Shown: piece after piece, positions 1,942 through 43,697 of the stretch
Layout: every line of letters starts with the position of its first letter
How positions within the stretch are numbered: the first letter of the stretch is position 1
Origin: a virus
Virus record (IMG/VR): IMGVR_UViG_3300048928_000366
Location: 1-56,877 of that record
Length of the DNA stretch: 56,877 nucleotides
Reading direction: 5' to 3' (one strand)
Position numbers and translations under genes: made by a program
The notes under the pieces: generated by a model
Databases searched by the model: none
What the model was told of the DNA's origin: nothing
What the model saw: the letters and a program-made list of their open reading frames with translations, nothing else

Positions 1942-4726
1942 CACTTCAGAAATGCCCAGGGCCGAAGAGGCTGTTGCTAGTTTAGCTGGGGTCGATAAAG
2001 AGACGGCAGACCAGATAAAAGCAACAAATAAGGCATTTCAGGATAGAGCAAAGGCAACGCAAACTGCCACTTCTTCAACTGATAAACTTTCCGATGCGGC
2101 TAAAAAGCTAGCAGAGTCTATTGCCGGTGGCGCGATTAATCAAGCTGCTAAGAATATCGACGAGATTGGAAATAAATCAAAAGAGGCGTCTGCAGAGGCT
2201 GTGCTTTTCGCAAAAACTATTGAGGCGGCGAAACAAAAATTAACACAATTATCAACTGGTTCCTCTGAGTTCGATAAACTATCCACAGAGATAGCAGCCT
2301 CAGAACTGGCAATGGCCAATATGGCGGATGAAGCAACAAGTGCGCGCGGTAAGTTGCGGCAATACCGTGAAACCTTATTGCAACTGGAAGATGCTGGACT
2401 GGATGGAACACAGGTATTTGAAGATCTGGCAGTGGCTGCCGGTGAGCTGTCTGACCAAGTGGGTGATACACAGAACAGAATTAAGGTACTTGCTTCGGAT
2501 ACATTCAAATTCGATGTTGCTATACAGGCGGTTGAGGGCGTTACAGGCGCATTCTCCGTGGCACAAGGTGCCGCCGCATTATTGGGTAGTGAAAATGAGG
2601 ATTTACAGAAGGCGTTGCTGAAGGTAAATGCCGCTATGTCCATTCTGCAGGGCCTCCAATCAATTCAAAATATTCTTCAAAAGGAATCTGCGCTCAGTAT
2701 TGGGGCAACTATAGCCTTACAGAAGATCGCCGTTGTGCAAACTAATCTTCAAGCAGCAGCAGAGAGCCGCAATATTATCGTGAGATATGCGGCTATAGCA
2801 GCACAAAGAGCATTAAACTTCGTAATGGCCGCAAACCCGGCCGGCGTTGTATTATTTGCTATTGCGGCACTAGCGACAGGGCTTTATGCACTGACCAGAA
2901 ACACTGATGACGCCGCGGCAGCTCAGGCAAGGCTGAATGAGCAATTGAAATTTGGCGCAGAATTGAATGACGAATTCGTTAAGTCTATTCAAGACGCTGG
3001 GGCGCTTAGACAGGCGCAGCTTAAAGCCCAAAATGCCACCGAGGCGCAATTGGGTACAGCAAGGCTAGCCAATCTTCAATCGCAATTAGTGCAGCAAAAG
3101 ATAATATACGATAGAGCAAATGCCAATTATGCAAAAGTGAATGAGAAGTTTATTGCACTTGGCAAGGATGCAAGTAAAGAAGATGCTGAGAATAGACAAA
3201 ATGCTTATGATTTAGCAAATAAGGCGGCTGAAGATTATTTCAACATACAAAAGCAGCTGGAGATTGAGGGAATAAATCAGCAACAAACAATAAGAGATCA
3301 GGCGTTTAGTGACGCCACGGCGTTGGCACAGGCAAGAATATCGCAGGCAAAGAAAGACAGTAAAGCTGAAATACAGGCTAGGATTGATGCAATACGGGTT
3401 GGACAAGCCGAGCAACTTGCGACACAGGCGCTAACAGATGCTCAAAAAACCAAGCTCATTGCTGACAACCAGAGAGCAATATCTGACCTGACATTGCAGA
3501 TTCAGGAAAAGGGATTTGATGATCAAATAGCATTAGCAAAATCCAAAGCCCTGGAGGAACAGGACTTTCTAAAACGGCTATCATTAGATATAGCTGTGGT
3601 TGAACTACAGGCACAGAGAGATCGGCTTGGAAAGAACGCGGCAGAAGCGCAACTGATTGAAACACAAAAGAACGAAGCTATACGTGCTTTGCGGCAGAAC
3701 TTATTTAAGGAACTTGAAAAAATAGAGGTAACAGAATTCGGGCGCAGCTTGTCGAGGCAGCATGCTTTTGATAAAGCTGTAATACGTGAACAAGTATTAA
3801 CTAGCGCTCAACTTGCACAGGCGAGGTTACAGGCAAGACAACAGGAAAACCAAGCAGCGCTTGACAATAAAGAAAAGCGTCTTCAGGAGGAGAAGGAACT
3901 GAGATACCGCCTCAAAGAGACCGCATTGAATACTGCGTCTTCAATTGCAGGGTCCTTAAATGAAATAGCTCGCAATCAGTCTGATAAAGAACTTTCAATC
4001 GTTCAAGATCGGGAAAATGAAAAACTAAAGGCTCTTCAACAGGCGCTTGATCAAGGGGCTATTTCCCAAGAAGAATATAATCAGAAATCGCAGGCAATTC
4101 AGGCTGAGTATGACCGTAAGTCTCGAGCAATTAAGATAAGAGCTGCACAGCAGGAAAAGCAGCTTGCTCTCTTCCAGGCAGGCATTGCACAATCCCTTGC
4201 TATTTTGGCGGTATTAAAAGATCAGGCAATTCCCCTGGCCGCCAAGCCAATTTTTATTGGCCTAGCAATCGCGCAAGCCTTGGCGCAACTAGCCGCAATA
4301 GCATCAAAGCCTATTCCTGCTTTCAAAACTGGAACTAAGAATGCGCCTGGGGGTATGTCCCTAATCGGGGAAGCAGGTCCAGAGCTTTATTATGCTGACG
4401 GTAAATGGGGATATGCCGCCAGTCCTACCGTTCTCGATCTGCCAAAAGGGTCAAAGGTGATCCCTACCCTGGAGACAGAGAAGATTTTGAATAAATACGA
4501 CATCCCATTGCCGAAGATTCCATCTTACATGGAGAGTCACTATAACAATAAGATTGACTATAGGATGTTGGCAAAACATGTTGGCAGAGAAGTTGGATCG
4601 CAACTGGAAAAATTGCCATTGAGCATCCATGGTTATGATAAAGATGGGCCATGGCAACATATCACGACGGTACAGAATCGTCATCAATTCCTAAGTAAAC
4701 GCTTTGGGAGGAGGCGAAATAGATGA
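1907..4726 (+). CDS. Tail tape measure protein
   Basis: 939 aa, Ala/Gln/Lys-rich coiled-coil composition, hydrophobic segments, C-terminal GEAGPE motif. Follows the chaperone. Confidence 0.85.
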   Translation: MPAQVIIKLIPDTSEMPRAEEAVASLAGVDKETADQIKATNKAFQDRAKATQTATSSTDKLSDAAKKLAESIAGGAINQAAKNIDEIGNKSKEASAEAVLFAKTIEAAKQKLTQLSTGSSEFDKLSTEIAASELAMANMADEATSARGKLRQYRETLLQLEDAGLDGTQVFEDLAVAAGELSDQVGDTQNRIKVLASDTFKFDVAIQAVEGVTGAFSVAQGAAALLGSENEDLQKALLKVNAAMSILQGLQSIQNILQKESALSIGATIALQKIAVVQTNLQAAAESRNIIVRYAAIAAQRALNFVMAANPAGVVLFAIAALATGLYALTRNTDDAAAAQARLNEQLKFGAELNDEFVKSIQDAGALRQAQLKAQNATEAQLGTARLANLQSQLVQQKIIYDRANANYAKVNEKFIALGKDASKEDAENRQNAYDLANKAAEDYFNIQKQLEIEGINQQQTIRDQAFSDATALAQARISQAKKDSKAEIQARIDAIRVGQAEQLATQALTDAQKTKLIADNQRAISDLTLQIQEKGFDDQIALAKSKALEEQDFLKRLSLDIAVVELQAQRDRLGKNAAEAQLIETQKNEAIRALRQNLFKELEKIEVTEFGRSLSRQHAFDKAVIREQVLTSAQLAQARLQARQQENQAALDNKEKRLQEEKELRYRLKETALNTASSIAGSLNEIARNQSDKELSIVQDRENEKLKALQQALDQGAISQEEYNQKSQAIQAEYDRKSRAIKIRAAQQEKQLALFQAGIAQSLAILAVLKDQAIPLAAKPIFIGLAIAQALAQLAAIASKPIPAFKTGTKNAPGGMSLIGEAGPELYYADGKWGYAASPTVLDLPKGSKVIPTLETEKILNKYDIPLPKIPSYMESHYNNKIDYRMLAKHVGREVGSQLEKLPLSIHGYDKDGPWQHITTVQNRHQFLSKRFGRRRNR

Positions 4727-23317: not shown

Positions 23318-23536
23318 ATGACCGAAAAGGAACATATAATATTAAAGGCGATCAGAAATAAGATCAAGGAAACCAGGACAAAACAGGGGTTAAGTATAAG
23401 GGCATTGGCGGCGAAGGCAGACATAGACCCGACATTGCTTCATGAATACGAAATAGGTATACGAGATACTAGAAGTTTGAACCTCATACGCATACTGGTA
23501 GCGCTGGACATAGACCTCAGTTCACTTACCGATTAA
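23318..23536 (+). CDS. XRE-family helix-turn-helix transcriptional regulator
   Basis: The pattern RTKQGLSIRALAAKADIDPTLLHEYEIG is a classic HTH_3 pattern. Confidence 0.75.
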   Translation: MTEKEHIILKAIRNKIKETRTKQGLSIRALAAKADIDPTLLHEYEIGIRDTRSLNLIRILVALDIDLSSLTD

Positions 23537-23782
23537 GACATAAATTTAGACATACTTTGAAATTAAAACTTGCAGATCGTCTGTGGTAGCGTGTTTTGTG
23601 GGTTAATGCTAAAATTCCACGTTATGGTACTCAGGTCCATAAAAAGTTAATATTTGTCCTGCCGTGGCCACAGAGCCTATTATTCAATGATTTATCTATT
23701 TTATTTTTCACCTCAAACTGGACATCTTTTGACATCTTTTCCCTAAATTTGGACATACATTTAGACATACACTTAATACGTT
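23536..23782. other. Putative attP region with arm-type GACAT(A/C) repeats
   Basis: ATTTAGACATAC occurs at 23544-23555 and 23759-23770. GACATCTTTT is tandem at 23721-23740, with AGACATA at 23536-23542 and GGACATAC at 23751-23758. The region is directly upstream of int. Confidence 0.5.
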
Positions 23783-24988
23783 ATGCCCAGAACCAGCTCC
23801 ACGTTAGTAGCTAACAATTATATATATGTTAGCTTCAGATGCGACGATGACCGCCTCCGATATCCAACTGGGGTTAAAGATAGTAATTCTCTTGGAAAGT
23901 CCGAATCAAAAAAGATTGAGAAGATTAAAGGACTAATTGACAATTATTCACTTCAATATGAATTACTGGGGCAGCCGGTTAAAAAGGCAGAGCTTGAGTC
24001 CTACCTTGATAGGCTTGTCAAGCCTGATAAGGTTAAAAAGAAATCTGATCGGGATTTTGTCTCTGATCATAAGCGGATGATACAGGCAATGCGGGACGGT
24101 ACGTTGTTAAAGAAAAAAAGCAAAAAGAAATATAGCCCCGCCTCGATAGACCAATATCAACGGATGAGGGAACGATGGGAAGAATGCGCCGCCGACCCTA
24201 CAAGTGGTTTCCTTCTATCCTACGATATGACAATCGAAATATTTCGTAAACTGCTTGTCTGGTTGATTAAAAAGAACTATTCCCAGAATTCGATTTATAA
24301 TATAGTAAACAATCTTGAAATATTTCTAAGGTACGCATATAACGAGGGGTATCACGCAAACAAGATATATGAGCATCGAGAGTTTGCTGTTCCCCAGGAA
24401 GAGTCGGACGCCATAGCTCCAACATATGATGAGGTGATCACCTTATATAATACACCATTTAAAAGAAAGTCAGAAGAGCAGGCGCGCGATCTCTTCGTAT
24501 ATGGTTGTTTTCTTGCACTTAGAGTTAAGGACTTAAACAGAATAAATGAATATAAATTGATAGGTAACGTATATGAGCTATCAACCCAGAAGACTGGCAA
24601 GAAGGTAATTATACCATGTCATTGGATAGGAAGGGAGATATATAATAAGTACAATGGGATAATTCCCACGTTTCTTCGTCAGACTTTTTCACGAATTCTT
24701 CCCCGGATATGTAAGGCGGCTGGCATTACCGGCGAGAAGTTAATTACTATGACGGTCGGAGGGGAGAAAATCGAAAAGTATTACAAACGATGGGATTTGA
24801 TCAGTCCTCACTCGATGAGGCGGTTTTATGCAACCTGGATGTACAGAGATCTACGGCGGCAACCTCGGGAGATAATGGCTATAACTGGTCATGAGTCTGA
24901 AGAATCTTTCTTTAAATACATAAAAATTGAGTTGGAGATGAACGCGCATGAGATTGCAAACGATCCGGCTTTCAAGAAGCCTGTTTGA
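23783..24988 (+). CDS. int: Tyrosine recombinase / phage integrase
   Basis: Catalytic-type motifs LALRVKDL, HSMRRFYAT and GHESEESFFKYI (R...HxxR...H...Y). Confidence 0.9.
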   Translation: MPRTSSTLVANNYIYVSFRCDDDRLRYPTGVKDSNSLGKSESKKIEKIKGLIDNYSLQYELLGQPVKKAELESYLDRLVKPDKVKKKSDRDFVSDHKRMIQAMRDGTLLKKKSKKKYSPASIDQYQRMRERWEECAADPTSGFLLSYDMTIEIFRKLLVWLIKKNYSQNSIYNIVNNLEIFLRYAYNEGYHANKIYEHREFAVPQEESDAIAPTYDEVITLYNTPFKRKSEEQARDLFVYGCFLALRVKDLNRINEYKLIGNVYELSTQKTGKKVIIPCHWIGREIYNKYNGIIPTFLRQTFSRILPRICKAAGITGEKLITMTVGGEKIEKYYKRWDLISPHSMRRFYATWMYRDLRRQPREIMAITGHESEESFFKYIKIELEMNAHEIANDPAFKKPV

Positions 24989-40492: not shown

Positions 40493-41320
40493 TTATTCAG
40501 GTTTAACTCCAGTGATTTCAGTGAATATTTCCCAGGTAAAGTTTGGCAGCTCATAGAATGCTTTGCGGTTGCTTTCGGACCAATTATGCCAAGCATTCTG
40601 GAATGCTTCTTTAAAAGGAATGTCCTTTAGGTATCCTTCGCAGGTGGTGTGTGATGGATATTTTGCCTTCTCTTCTTCCGTCATGTAAGAGGAAGGTACC
40701 CATTGTTTCGTGTCCACTTGGCAGAGTAAAGAGAACGCCTTGCTGTCTTTGAACTGTTGTTCAGTCCAGTTGGAAGGCTGATTAAAAATGGGAAAGGGGG
40801 CAGATCCGGTGCAGAAAGCGCCGGTGTTCCTGTCGCCGGTGTTACTGTAGCCGGTGTTCCTGTAGCCGGTGTTCCAGGAGCCGGTGTTACTGTCGCCGGT
40901 GTTCCTGTCGCCGGTGTTCCTGTCGCCGGTGTTCCTGGAGCCGGTGTTCCTGTAGCCGGTGTTCCAGGAGCCGGTGTTACTGTCGCCGGTGTTCCTGTCG
41001 CCGGTGTTCCTGTCGCCGGTGTTCCTGTCGCCGGTGTTCCTGGAGCCGGTGTTCCTGTCGCCGGTGTTCGCTAACCCAGTATTGCCTTCTCCTGTATTAG
41101 CAATGCCAGCAGCAAGTAATTTTTCAGGGGTAAACATTTTCAGTATATCGTCCGGACATGCGCCATTCTCAGAACACCAGTCTAAATTGTCTTTTGCAAC
41201 TTGTAGCAGATCTTCTTCTGTTTGAGCGTTTCTGACCCGTCGTAGTTGTTCGTGGCAAGGGTTCTTAGTAGCAAGAATCGCCAATGCCGCCTCTTTAATT
41301 TTGTTGAAGTTATTTTCCAT
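40493..41320 (-). CDS. Pentapeptide-repeat protein (about 20 NTGxx units)
   Basis: NTGDRNTGDRNTGDSNTGSWNTGYRNTGSR is repeated. There are globular N- and C-terminal domains. Confidence 0.7.
   Translation of the reverse strand: MENNFNKIKEAALAILATKNPCHEQLRRVRNAQTEEDLLQVAKDNLDWCSENGACPDDILKMFTPEKLLAAGIANTGEGNTGLANTGDRNTGSRNTGDRNTGDRNTGDRNTGDSNTGSWNTGYRNTGSRNTGDRNTGDRNTGDSNTGSWNTGYRNTGYSNTGDRNTGAFCTGSAPFPIFNQPSNWTEQQFKDSKAFSLLCQVDTKQWVPSSYMTEEEKAKYPSHTTCEGYLKDIPFKEAFQNAWHNWSESNRKAFYELPNFTWEIFTEITGVKPE
40805..41100. repeat. 15-nt tandem coding repeat with a 90-nt higher-order duplication
   Basis: Units of gccggtgttcctgtc type were read directly. Unit pattern DR-DR-DS-SW-YR-SR is followed by DR-DR-DS-SW-YR-YS. 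Confidence 0.85.
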
Positions 41321-41406: not shown

Positions 41407-41841
41407 TTAATATTTGTCTCCGCCTACAGACATTTTCATTTCAACACTTACTTTGTACGTGTTCTGCATGCAGGCAACCGCTCCGTCTACCATAGCTTTA
41501 GCAAATGATGTAGCTCCTTTCTTAGAGGATATTTCCTTTATCACTGCCGCACGGATAATCTCAGTGTTTTCTGCTGCCCATTTCATCATCTCCTGCTTGG
41601 CAGTTTCCTGGATGATGTTTCTAAATACGATGTCCATAAAATTGTGAGTGTTGTCCGAGCTGTATTGACCTTTGTAGCCTTTATCGTTCACTTTGTCATT
41701 GAGACAATGTGCAACGATGGATGCAACTACTTTTTCAGGATCGCCTAAAGCGCGTGTAAGGGCTGATTTAATTTCAGTTTCAACTATCGGCTTCAGTAGG
41801 TCTGGATTCAGGTTGATAGATCCTAGTGATGTATTCGACAT
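41407..41841 (-). CDS. Hypothetical protein
   Basis: 144-aa ORF. The CAGTGAACA element lies 30 nt upstream of the ATG. Confidence 0.55.
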   Translation of the reverse strand: MSNTSLGSINLNPDLLKPIVETEIKSALTRALGDPEKVVASIVAHCLNDKVNDKGYKGQYSSDNTHNFMDIVFRNIIQETAKQEMMKWAAENTEIIRAAVIKEISSKKGATSFAKAMVDGAVACMQNTYKVSVEMKMSVGGDKY

Positions 41842-42169
41842 TTGTAAGATGTTTATGATGGTTTGATAAATTGTTCACTGTTCTTTAAAAGCCAGGCGGC
41901 GGAAGCTTAACACTAACACAACTATGAATAATGTACCTATGCCGCCTGGTTTGCTTTCCTAAAAAGTCCTGTCTCGATCATGTCCACGACACGGTTGTAG
42001 CCTCATGATCGAATAATTGACTACTTCATAACAAAGAGCTTTGGTTAAGATGCAACCGCTTTTCTGCTCAGGATACCGGCTTGTTATCCCCTGCATCTTT
42101 AAATCCCGGATGGTCTGATGACCGTTTTTTCAATAACAACTCGTGAACAGGGCAGGGCTCGAACCTGCA

Positions 42170-42400
42170 TTAAGAACCTACGGCCGGGACACCAGCGCAC
42201 GTCTTATTACCACTTCGACATTGACCACAGAGCAATCTTTTAGGAGCAAAAATCTTTTTAGACTTAGCAGGGCCGAACTTCCACGTCCCCGGCTTCGAAC
42301 AATTCGCACACGTAGTATAGTACGTTGTGTGACCTGTTTTGCGCATGGATATTCTGCGCTTTCTTGCCGCTCGTTCCCGTTTTCCTAAATTCTTTGCCAT
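42170..42400 (-). CDS. Small highly basic zinc-ribbon protein
   Basis: MAKNLGKRERAARKRR..., with CANC...CGQC. Starts 1 nt after the stop of 42402-42605. Confidence 0.4.
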   Translation of the reverse strand: MAKNLGKRERAARKRRISMRKTGHTTYYTTCANCSKPGTWKFGPAKSKKIFAPKRLLCGQCRSGNKTCAGVPAVGS

Positions 42401-42401
42401 G

Positions 42402-42605
42402 TTATCTGTTTACTTTAATGATAGCGTTTACCATTTTCGCCACCTGTCCATTTGCCAGTTTACGTCTGGCCTTCGTCTCCTTCGTCGGAGCATTCCCGGT
42501 GTTCGGTCCGGCACGGCGTTCAGACTCGCCAGTCAAAGAGTTTAAAAGTGCCGGTCTTTCCCGGCTATCAGATGCTTTCGTTTCTTTCCATGAAGTCCAC
42601 AACAT
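42402..42605 (-). CDS. Small charged hypothetical protein
   Basis: 67 aa, coupled to the downstream basic ORF. Coding status uncertain. Confidence 0.3.
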   Translation of the reverse strand: MLWTSWKETKASDSRERPALLNSLTGESERRAGPNTGNAPTKETKARRKLANGQVAKMVNAIIKVNR

Positions 42606-43282
42606 TTTCTGTTGTCACCACGGGCTTACCATTATCCCGAAAAGAAATGCTGTTTAATACCAAGCGTCATGTCGCCCTACTCACATCGTTCTGTCTGTCT
42701 AAGTGGGATGTGGAGAGAGGGGAATCGAACCCCGGCTACCCGTCGATAGCTCTGTCCTAAACATCCCTCCAGATTGCCGGCAGGCCGTCCGGCGGTCTAT
42801 TTATTTTTTCACGAGTAAATCTTCATTCTTACAATTTGGTTTCGATCTTGCTCAGGCCTGTTGTTCACTGTTACATATATAAAACCAGCAGTGATGCTGT
42901 CCTCCTCTTTTTAAGTACCAGCTATAGAGATAGCCGGTTTCCCTTTAAAATTCCACGTTATGAAAAAAGGTTGCTCTCTCCCAACAGAGGATTTCGGTAT
43001 TAACATCTACGCGACGTTGGTTCCTCGTGGGGCAACCATCCCTATTTTCATGTTTGGTTTCTAACGAGAGCAATAAAGCAGGGGAGAGGGAAGATATGGC
43101 TATGAAAAAAGGCATACCCCCTTCCCGCAATGTTTTGCGGTACTGAGGTGGATGGGTTTCTCGCCTAAAACCCTTTCCCGCAATATTTTTGTCCAGTATG
43201 TAAAAGAACTTTCTTTGTTGTGGCAGGAGGTGGATACCTCCCGCGTCCGATCGTCCTATTAACCTATATCTATTGTAGCGTC
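42606..43282 (-). ncRNA. Candidate large structured non-coding RNA (or ori-like structured DNA)
   Basis: 677 nt with no convincing ORF in an otherwise tightly packed operon. Multiple hairpins, a long-range 8-bp helix and direct repeats. One stem has a mismatch on the plus strand that becomes a G-U pair on the minus strand. Confidence 0.3.
42711..42771 (-). ncRNA. Non-canonical tRNA-like element (T-arm plus acceptor-like helix, 61 nt)
   Basis: The minus strand reads TGGAGGG...CGGGGTTCGATTCCCCT-CTCTCCA. It has the T-loop consensus GTTCGAUU and 7-bp acceptor-like pairing, but too few nt for D and anticodon arms. Confidence 0.25.
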
Positions 43283-43513
43283 TTACAGCACCACACAAGA
43301 AGCGCAACAAGTATTGCAAAAAATATTGTTCCTGCGATGCTCAATATCGTGTCCTGTCGTCTCGTGGTCATCTGGTATAATCGTTATTGTATAAATTGAT
43401 AACCGGTATCTTTTTATCAGTTTTTCCAGTATATCCTCCCTGTTCTTCCGACCATTGTATCGCCTGCAGATATTCAGTCCACGCTCATCTTCAAGCCGCA
43501 CAGTTCCTTTCAT
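43283..43513 (-). CDS. Hypothetical protein
   Basis: 76 aa. Starts 1 nt after the upstream stop. Confidence 0.45.
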   Translation of the reverse strand: MKGTVRLEDERGLNICRRYNGRKNREDILEKLIKRYRLSIYTITIIPDDHETTGHDIEHRRNNIFCNTCCASCVVL

Positions 43514-43514
43514 C

Positions 43515-43697
43515 TCAATTCATTTGCTCCGGTTCCAACTCACGCATTTTGCACATGCTAACGCTACGATCGCGAAAAGTGACAGTGTGATCAACATCTT
43601 CTTCAGTGTTATGGTGTTCTTCAGAAACCGGCGTTTTTTCAGCCGCTACGTACAACAAAGCCACTACTATCATTCCTGCACATAATAACCATCCCAT
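43515..43697 (-). CDS. Small membrane protein
   Basis: N-terminal TM helix, 60 aa. Confidence 0.45.
   Translation of the reverse strand: MGWLLCAGMIVVALLYVAAEKTPVSEEHHNTEEDVDHTVTFRDRSVSMCKMRELEPEQMN

Follow-up and report, generated by a model that had tools for sequence, protein, structure and literature searches.

The DNA analyzed here (the window) is the 56,877-nt IMG/VR virus record IMGVR_UViG_3300048928_000366, a phage genome of ~57 kb, and the element in question is a 677-nt non-coding interval at positions 42606 to 43282. The genome carries an integrase gene (23783-24988, plus strand) and a long leftward early operon that encloses the interval. The phage is temperate, and its host is taken to be Chitinophaga (phylum Bacteroidota) because homologs of a 144-aa protein, encoded on the downstream side of the interval, occur in phage contigs and in a Chitinophaga pinensis prophage. 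A sequence-only reading of the same DNA had singled out the interval as the largest gap in a tightly packed operon, which agrees with a crude gene call, and had proposed a leftward structured RNA of unknown class or, alternatively, a replication origin or packaging site. The untranslated tract is longer than that reading allowed: the interval is the 5′ part of a ~1.4-kb tract on the minus strand that runs from 43273 to 41842, with its upper end perhaps at 43514, and the gene for the 144-aa protein (41407-41841, minus strand) lies directly downstream of it. The interval had also been called free of open reading frames (ORFs), which holds in the sense that no ORF there has coding or family support. 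Mechanical ORFs do exist, such as one of 124 aa with a TTG start (42945-43319, minus strand); their dicodon scores are at or below zero and none matched PHROG or Pfam. A Logan contig (L001) that is 100% identical to the window has no called gene between window positions 43515 and 41842, and offers nothing further for comparison.

Homologs of the 144-aa protein are encoded in two ~55-kb phage contigs (L002 and L008), in the C. pinensis prophage (L004) and in several shorter contigs. In L002, L004 and L008 an uncalled gap of 0.5-1.1 kb precedes the gene, each gap contains a real tRNA, and comparison by blastn and MAFFT revealed conserved non-coding blocks between these gaps and the window. Further homologs were obtained by pattern scans with the most conserved 15-16-mer over IMG/VR, JGI metagenomes and GTDB genomes, and include L025, L031, L040, L059, L069, L093, L102 and L117 as well as many Chitinophaga genomes. 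Nucleotide searches of the interval against INPHARED phages, in near and distant mode, gave no match; IMG/VR searches seeded singly with the 144-aa protein or the integrase returned no relatives, and the exact tRNA-like string described below had no match in IMG/VR. In the sister phages and prophages the non-coding cassette occupies the same position upstream of the 144-aa gene, on the minus strand, with covarying modules and a variable tRNA slot.

Covarying hairpin modules on the minus strand

Read on the minus strand, the features follow the order U0, T0, P1a, P1b, D0, D1, D3, P2, H1, a purine box with H2, CAGTGAACA, CAGGCC, a variable spacer, P5 and a tRNA-like element (Table 1). The structural features listed in the sequence-only reading were all recovered. 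These include the hairpins at 43223-43244, 43125-43140 and 43154-43173, the first of which has an A.C mismatch on the plus strand that becomes a G.U pair on the minus strand, and the 8-bp long-range pairing of TTGCTCTC (42971-42978) with GAGAGCAA (43066-43073), which closes D3. The direct repeats at 43119-43136 and 43171-43190 correspond to the 5′ strands of D0 and D1, and the two copies of TATGAAAAAAGG (42959-42970 and 43101-43112) to the D1 loop and P2. The orphan CAGTGAACA copy on the minus strand and the remaining motifs, purine-rich ones included, were likewise present. The description of the interval as highly structured applied to a part of it only: the whole 677 nt folds no better than shuffled sequences (minus strand, z = -1.08; plus strand, z = -0.14), whereas a 307-nt core (43212-42906) folds better than shuffles, on the minus strand only (z = -2.81, versus -1.09 on the plus strand). 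In eight homologs the segment from the leader to H1 had a mean z of -2.27 in the sense and -1.03 in the antisense direction, and the signal is strand-specific in most of them.

Covariation of H1 was evaluated with a covariance model of P2 plus H1 (R1), which has 36 instances, 31 of them distinct, and the counts that follow are from the 31. Paired cells amount to 89%, compared with 68.5% in shuffles and 23-50% in slid controls. Compensatory changes are found in six of the eight pairs, and 50 cells are changed on both sides versus 14.6 in shuffles, a value equaled in 0 of 500 shuffles. At one of the pairs, 18 sequences have G.U and 12 have G-C; read from the plus strand, the G.U would become A.C. 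The H2 hairpin, flagged as terminator-like on the minus strand, has two compensatory pairs in seven loci. At one position of the long-range helix that spans the variable spacer, the same number of loci show GC (three), GU (three) or AU (one), and the helix is 100% paired versus 9-49% in slid controls.

Other helices change in a similar manner. The D1 helix (RNAalifold columns 124-135/164-175) contains one compensatory pair and several G.U pairs, and a homologous apical GCCUUUGUAUGAG is found in L031, L117 and L079. The closing helices of D3 and of the alpha domain vary on both sides: UUGCUCUC/GAGAGCAA in the window, UUGCCAG/CUGGCAA in L002, UGAUUGCUC/GAGCAAUCA in L031 and UGAUUGCCA/UGGCAAUCA in L117. 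In another domain a 10-bp closing helix is wholly different yet complementary in L059 (GCGAUGUCUG/CAGGCAUCGC) and L025 (GCAACGCUGC/GCAGCGUUGC). As read from the sequence, the D0 helix is kept as UGCGG/CCGCA in L004 and shifts to AUAUUG/CAAUAU in L002. A conserved protein-coding pattern in related phages, or a lack of covariation in every helix, had been named at the outset as grounds for abandoning a structured RNA; in relatives the conserved ATG is followed by mutually unrelated peptides, and H1, H2 and the long-range helix covary. The proposal of a leftward structured RNA gains support from these helices, from the minus-strand G.U pairs and minus-only folding, and from the leader and tRNA slot described below.

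The body is a string of swappable modules, and the idea of one giant ornate RNA is not supported. In the promoter-early stem-loop (PeSL) cassettes of T4-type phages, signals and stem-loops stand at the module boundaries of a hyper-plastic region, and in both systems short conserved signals and stem-loops accompany the swapping of small modules. Unlike PeSL cassettes, the window and its relatives exchange RNA domains and tRNAs and not small ORFs, and the helices covary as RNA. P5 and the long-range helix were treated as alternatives; by our own reasoning, a pseudoknot of the two would leave no loop nucleotides. On the plus strand, 42771-42809 reads as a terminator-like hairpin followed by a T-run, which is P5 read backwards plus the AT-rich spacer, and no plus-strand gene lies upstream of it.

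A boxA-like leader is shared with GOLLD and tmRNA genes

The leader of the cassette consists of a hairpin (T0), a boxA-like box (P1a) and an AU-rich spacer (P1b). This order of hairpin, box and spacer is that of ribosomal RNA operon (rrn) leaders, in which boxB has the position of T0. All related loci, and many of those of GOLLD, have a hairpin ahead of the leader motif. P1a aligns with the canonical AAGTTCTTTGAAT of the sister prophage L004, and boxA-like equivalents are GTTCTTTGAAT in L004 and GCTCTTTACAT in L002. In the window, GTTCTTTTACA at 43209-43199 fits 10 of the 11 positions of GYTCTTTAANA, a consensus for finding NusB/NusE sites (PMC5725501) that may not be the Bacteroidota form. 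Copies of the AUUGC type found in P1b also open D1 and D3. Further upstream, ATAGG-repeat boxes that by eye resemble U0 precede the hairpin and leader in L117, L079, L002, L025, L122 and L159, and U0 is possibly a promoter or regulator site.

The canonical form of P1, expressed as the pattern AGTTCTTTGAAT N0-4 AAATATTG, has 55 exact matches in IMG/VR, and the leader was surveyed at the IMG/VR loci L125-L174 (for example L130 4223-5044, L126 5907-5084 and L142 727-1133). Of 54 sites, 32 have a Bacteroidota -7 box (TAnnTTTG) at a distance of 20-70 nt upstream of the canonical motif, in many cases separated from it by a small hairpin, and at 29 or more of the 54 the motif runs straight into the 5′ signature of GOLLD. 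Rfam GOLLD matches of 223-327 bits begin ~390 nt past the motif in L126, L130, L127 and L140, an offset that fits the published ~420-nt 5′ region (residues 1-420; PMC12286853), which the Rfam model omits. The P1b motif ends at the GOLLD 5′ end in GOLLD loci and exactly at nucleotide 1 of a phage tmRNA in L142. From the sites preceding GOLLD, the tmRNA of L142 and the sister prophage L004, we conclude that large non-coding RNA genes of Bacteroidota phages have P1 as a common leader. A term search of the GOLLD paper (PMC12286853) found no mention of boxA; literature string searches returned nothing relevant for the boxA variant and nothing usable for Bacteroidota boxA.

GOLLD resembles the cassette in being phage-encoded, large, non-coding and tRNA-adjacent, and the same leader (AGUUCUUUGAAU..AAAUAUUG) stands in front of it in Bacteroidota phages, in many cases after a hairpin. 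It has a variable 5′ region, sometimes includes tRNAs and reaches ~800 nt or more (PMC12286853). In contrast, the body in the window (43180-42771, ~410 nt) is about half this size, is a chain of interchangeable small domains, lacks the universally conserved 3′ domain of GOLLD and has no blastn likeness to it past the leader.

The arrangement of hairpin, boxA-like box and spacer at the head of a long untranslated structured transcript is also reminiscent of the nut sites of phage lambda, which lie in early operons and allow read-through into delayed-early genes. The site in the window differs in being located 2.2 kb into its operon and not beside a promoter, and no N-like or Q-like protein was identified in the phage. 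Neither P1 nor P2 could be read as a canonical Bacteroidota -33/-7 promoter, which they misfit in spacing and sequence; a TAnnTTTG-like box just before P2 is found only in L008, L040, L117 and one of the host units described below (copy 2). A sigma-70 promoter scan gave counts at shuffle level and is uninformative for a Bacteroidota host.

A tRNA slot with variable occupants follows P5

In every locus P5 ends 2-3 nt upstream of a tRNA, including the real tRNAs of L002, L004 and L008, and the canonical occupants of this slot are tRNA-Arg-ACG in L002, Thr-TGT in L004, Thr in L031, Ile-GAT in L008 and Cys in L040 and L102. The tRNA-like element noted in the sequence-only reading is real and aligns to this slot, right after the conserved GC hairpin; what that reading missed is that this tRNA slot is conserved and that the element (element 1) occupies it in degenerate form. 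Its acceptor stem (GGAGGGA/UCUCUCC) and T arm (GGGG-UUCGAUU-CCCC) alone are intact, followed by an A discriminator, and the D arm is lost and GCUA-UCGACGGG-UAGC takes the place of the anticodon arm. ARAGORN called 0 tRNA or tmRNA genes in the window. No Rfam family reached its gathering score anywhere in the window, and in a permissive Rfam search (E <= 10, 41600-43600) the only relevant matches were a 13-bit tmRNA T arm at 42719-42733 and a 16-bit tRNA at 42216-42144, both on the minus strand. Element 1 was rejected as a tmRNA because only model positions 348-362, the T arm, match, and as a full tRNA because its cloverleaf is incomplete and the Rfam tRNA clan scores no more than 13 bits. It was also rejected as the site of attP, the integrase being 18 kb away with an attP of its own and the C. 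pinensis prophage not being split here.

Non-canonical slot elements are present in the window, L117, L083 and L122 and as the second element of L004, which has an encoded CCA. They keep a 6-7-bp acceptor stem and the T arm by compensatory changes, have a lost or altered D arm, and carry a 4-bp stem with an 8-nt loop instead of the anticodon arm. The acceptor and T-arm part of tRNA is what RNase P recognizes. A processing role is favored because decoding identity varies and the part recognized by RNase P is kept. Comparable tRNA-like processing signals are known from the mammalian MALAT1-mascRNA and from bacterial tRNA-linked, spacer-derived small RNAs. The window resembles these in having an acceptor plus T-arm mini-helix directly 3′ of a structured RNA, behind a stable hairpin that lies 2-3 nt from where RNase P would be expected to cut; it differs in that the slot tRNAs of sister phages are normal and may be plain decoding genes. 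Genes for tRNA-like elements of the 4-bp-stem type were also seen in relatives (L069 1117-1213, L117 ~4268-4345, L083 ~2830-2910 as oriented, and L004 4492-4567), one of them called as a four-base-anticodon tRNA by ARAGORN, and these may be processing elements or unusual decoders.

The P2 box matches the attP core and a host element

The repeated TATGAAAAAAGG listed in the sequence-only reading belongs to a box, P2, that is identical to the phage attP core, which that reading did not notice. The window has just two exact copies of the 17-mer CATAACGTGGAATTTTA, at 42946-42962 and at 23610-23626, versus 0.04 expected, and the second copy was found with model R1. The P2 core is invariant in 36 loci. 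Around the second copy (23380-23790) the core GCTAAAATTCCACGTTATGG is situated amid six WATGTCY arm-type repeats, versus 0.3 expected. An integrase gene in L175, whose product is 71% identical, has an identical 40-nt site at the same distance. In L124 an integrase homolog (58% identical) lies at a prophage-host junction, where similarity extends from int to TAATGCTAAAATTCCACG and is followed by a host hairpin and host genes. On the basis of the L124 junction and L175, we assign the 23.6-kb site as the phage attP.

In Chitinophaga chromosomes, carA and a convergent aminotransferase gene flank two units that each combine P2 with a hairpin. In copy 2, which four species share without a difference, a -7-like box (TATTTTTG) is followed by P2, a perfect terminator hairpin and U8; this copy looks like an unannotated ~60-nt small-RNA gene and attB-type target. 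Att sites are known within small-RNA, tRNA and tmRNA genes, and the situation here is similar in that the P2 core is the attP core and recurs in a host unit with its own terminator. The P2-H1 segment of the window agrees with the host unit at ~34 of 36 positions, flanks and hairpin position included. It differs from such att sites in lying 19 kb from int and inside an RNA cassette, with no WATGTCY repeats compared with six at attP. Because of the match to the host unit and the lack of arm repeats, the interval copy is taken to be an attB-like copy of the host element within a phage RNA, and attB-like at most.

A role of P2 as an RNA mimic or antisense seems more likely than one in recombination, since recombination between direct repeats would delete the early region and the adjacent hairpin is constrained as RNA. 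P2 was rejected as a plus-strand gene start (ATG AAA AA), the ORFs that follow being 3-81 aa and unrelated, and its resemblance to a DnaA box or IHF site is weak. A literature string search for P2 returned nothing relevant.

A model for the cassette and its alternatives

We lean toward the view that the interval covers the upstream portion of a cassette dedicated to a non-coding RNA, which is structured, modular and leftward and belongs to no described family. The cassette could work as follows. T0, the boxA-like AGUUCUUUUACA and the AU-rich spacer would form an rrn/nut-type leader that loads Nus factors, and RNA polymerase would then escape both Rho-dependent and intrinsic termination along ~1.4 kb of untranslated RNA rich in hairpins and reach the downstream recombination and replication genes. 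The tRNA, here an acceptor-plus-T-arm remnant, would be a cutting signal for RNase P (and RNase Z), and cleavage would free the RNA upstream, ~410-440 nt long, whose 3′ end would be protected by the GC hairpin P5. Decoding would be dispensable, so that tRNA identity could vary and decay. The freed RNA would present two copies of CCUUUUUUCAUA, of which one lies in the loop of D1 and the other in P2, a single-stranded box. P2 and H1 together would be a phage copy of the short host unit (P2 plus terminator hairpin), itself the target of this integrase family, and the RNA would probably be a mimic or antisense partner of the host element or of AUGAAAAAA-type start regions, which is the least certain step. 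Nus antitermination, RNase P release and a trans role of P2 are what we infer from these arrangements.

If GOLLD, phage tmRNA and this RNA share a boxA-like leader, they may have in common a Nus-antitermination route to long untranslated RNAs in Bacteroidota phages, and the leader motif would be a simple handle for large phage RNAs missed by covariance models. A slot that can be filled by any tRNA or remnant suggests that some phage tRNA genes are kept for processing and not for decoding, which bears on the long-standing question of why phages carry tRNAs. Because the RNA box is identical to the att core, it connects the target of integration with a putative small-RNA family, in a phylum with poorly known RNA biology. 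A more doubtful extension, put forward tentatively, is that the cassette represents a new modular class of phage RNA that acts in trans and combines a GOLLD-type Nus leader, tRNA-type release and a single-stranded box copying the host target of the integrase. Such an RNA might act as a mimic or sponge toward small RNAs of a Chitinophaga family, as an antisense RNA to attP/attL/attR transcripts, or as a GOLLD/ROOL-like self-assembling particle; the antisense mode, if true, would tie early transcription to the integration decision. A test system exists in the cultured C. pinensis DSM 2588, which carries a homologous cassette in a prophage at ~4.822-4.833 Mb of CP001699.1.

Several points weigh against a dedicated RNA. 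The boxA reading rests on resemblance and context. The leader of the window has UUUUACA in place of the canonical UUUGAAU, and because no canonical TAnnTTTG promoter precedes it, the RNA may be a mere part of the operon transcript. Over its full 677 nt the interval is not unusually stable. The H1 counts come from a model-fitted alignment, which favors structure; the H1 result is the same in the original MAFFT alignment and against the slid controls. P5, the P2 mini-hairpin and the UUGC/GCAA helices are invariant, so no covariation is possible in them. The body is poorly conserved beyond three close relatives, with domains swapped or absent, and this also fits a plastic region without a function of its own. 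That possibility is the strongest rival, although we regard it as somewhat unlikely: a decayed tRNA graveyard in which transcription signals (terminators, promoters and mobile boundaries) have been shuffled by recombination, in the manner of the T4-type PeSL cassettes, and the body is functionless. It would account for the two degenerate tRNAs, for modules that are missing or re-ordered (D3 is absent in L004, and P2-H1 stands ahead of the leader in L025, L069 and L093), for the H1-type hairpins that are ordinary terminators elsewhere in the phage, and for the distant relatives L012 and L013, which are entirely without the gap. It does not sit well with short boxes that are invariant across diverged phages while neighboring helices covary, with a leader common to bona fide large RNA genes, with a fold signal that is strand-specific in most homologs, or with an acceptor stem and T arm exactly retained in several independent loci.

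The similarity of P2 to att sites raises the possibility of a DNA recombination site, in which P2-H1 would be a working attB-like site for the phage's own or a related integrase or satellite and would mediate cassette capture, tRNA-module exchange or insertion into a resident prophage. In its favor are the 17 nt shared with attP, the host-like flanks, a half-copy (CCTTTTTTCATA) 142 nt away that resembles a hybrid site, and the differing tRNA occupants of sister phages. We nevertheless consider it quite unlikely, as the arm-type repeats are confined to attP in this comparison, the two copies are direct repeats 19.3 kb apart whose recombination would delete int together with the early region, the C. 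pinensis prophage is unsplit at this site, the conserved G.U in H1 points to constraint on the RNA, and in three phages the half-copy itself is conserved in the loop of a hairpin. The alternative offered in the sequence-only reading, that DNA repeats and hairpins form a replication origin or packaging site, fared poorly and is very unlikely. Direct repeats of AAAAYATTGCGGGAAGGG do lie 53 nt apart, the recombination and replication genes are near, and one 40-nt stretch from 42798 has a GC content of 20%; however, the repeats number only two or three copies, do not form an iteron array and are the 5′ strands of covarying helices, and the region is not AT-rich (GC 0.458 versus a genome mean of 0.432). 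The cumulative skew minimum at 44-45 kb is outside the interval and tracks the switch in gene strand near 45 kb, with no local inflection, and no array resembling DnaA boxes was seen by eye, no formal DnaA-box search having been made. Equally slight is the chance that the tract encodes missed small proteins, namely plus-strand MKKG peptides of 34 and 14 aa and minus-strand ORFs of 124, 76 and 67 aa. ATG AAA AAA GG does occur twice on the plus strand, and the 76-aa ORF (42170-42400) has two CxxC pairs and abuts ORF 42402-42605. The coding scores are weak, though, Pfam and PHROG gave no match, none of these ORFs is called in the identical Logan contig, ORF 42402-42605 shrinks to ~25 codons in L031 despite 88% nucleotide identity, and ORF 42170-42400 ends within a tRNA remnant (element 2). 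The least credible option is a divergent member of GOLLD or ROOL, families raised for comparison in the sequence-only reading. A phage-borne RNA that adjoins a tRNA-like gene and has the 5′ leader motif of Bacteroidota GOLLD would invite it, but neither RF02032 (gathering score 150 bits, against the 223-327 bits of the L126, L130, L127 and L140 controls) nor ROOL reached its gathering score in the window or matched 41600-43600 at E <= 10, blastn found no similarity to GOLLD loci, and the body of ~410-440 nt compares with more than 800 nt for GOLLD.

Table 1. Coordinates of features in and around the cassette; positions refer to the window unless another locus is named.
Feature	Position	Strand	Basis or remark
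U0, ATAG-repeat box ATAGATATAGGTTAATAGGA	43254-43273	-	Right after the stop of the last upstream ORF; unique in the window
T0 hairpin, GCGGGAGGU-AUCC-ACCUCCUGC	43223-43244	-	9 bp with one G.U; directly upstream of the boxA-like box
P1a, boxA-like AGUUCUUUUACA	43199-43210	-	Consensus match; alignment to L004
P1b, AAAAAUAUUG, AU-rich punctuation	43181-43190	-	Ends at the first nucleotide of the structured body
D0 domain, helix UUGCGG/CCGCAA around hairpin GGGUUU..AAACCC (43173-43154)	43135-43184	-	Sequence and fold
D1 hairpin, GCGGGAAGGG / CCCUCUCCCCUGC, apical CCUUUUUUCAUAGCC (first TATGAAAAAAGG copy)	43080-43136	-	RNAalifold
D3, inserted domain of ~100 nt closed by UUGCUCUC/GAGAGCAA	42971-43073	-	Absent from L004
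P2 box UUUUUUCAUAACGUGGAAUUUUA, single-stranded, second TATGAAAAAAGG copy, attB-like core	42946-42968	-	Matches attP core
H1 hairpin, ACCGGCUAU-cucu-AUAGCUGGU	42917-42938	-	Covariance-model alignment
Shine-Dalgarno-like purine box AAAGAGGAGGA (42910-42900), H2 CAGCA-ucac-UGCUG (42899-42886), then GUUUUAUAUAUG	42886-42910	-	Conserved in seven loci
Orphan CAGTGAACA copy	42862-42870	-	No ATG after it; kept as AACAGTGAACA(A)CAGGCC in L002 and L004
Long-range helix, CAGGCC (42860-42855) with GGCCUG (42786-42781), plus P5	42774-42860	-	Spans the variable spacer
P5, invariant GC hairpin CGCCGGACGGCCUGCCGGCAA	42774-42794	-	RNAalifold; ends 3 nt ahead of the tRNA slot
tRNA-like element 1	42711-42770	-	60-nt acceptor-plus-T-arm remnant
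Block D, conserved non-coding trailer	42541-42715	-	175 nt; mostly outside the reported interval; overlaps the doubtful ORF 42402-42605
tRNA-like element 2, decayed type-II-like tRNA	42144-42216	-	Rfam tRNA 16 bits versus a threshold of 29
attP core, second copy of the P2 17-mer	23610-23626	-	~160 nt upstream of the integrase gene 23783-24988 (plus strand)
CAGTGAACA sites	25253, 25661, 29703, 32423, 32750, 37245, 37471, 37912	-	
CAGTGAACA site	26382	+	
CAGTGAACA sites, further	41880-41872, 42870-42862		
Host units	L092 7750-8040		Also L108, L110, L112, L114, L120 and L121

The trailer and other features of the operon

Downstream of element 1, block D ends in a hairpin (GCCGGGAAAGACCGGC, 42565-42550) followed by ACUUUUAAA. 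It is 88% identical over 147 nt to the otherwise diverged L031/L047 and 73% identical to L122, a C. chungangae prophage; it had no Rfam match, and covariation in three sequences is weak. The 3′ end of element 2 is 90-93% identical to odd tRNAs of L025, L069 and L159. Element 2 overlaps the 3′ end of the CxxC ORF at 42170-42400, which is doubtful because its second CxxC is encoded by tRNA D-arm-like sequence. Past element 2 the tract contains a hairpin and the second CAGTGAACA just before the 144-aa gene.

At nine genes or more, most of them in the leftward operon, the CAGTGAACA box or a variant with one mismatch stands immediately against the ATG. Within one mismatch there are 24 matches in the window versus 12.9 expected; the box usually follows an A-rich run, often with a hairpin and TTTTATA, and two copies have no adjacent ATG. 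It could be an initiation box in a host without Shine-Dalgarno pairing, or a promoter or processing site that gives leaderless mRNAs.

The protein encoded at 40493-41320 (minus strand) contains ~20 tandem NTG(D/S/Y)R pentapeptide repeats and belongs to phrog_14105, and its homolog in L004 matches Pentapeptide_2 and DUF7666.

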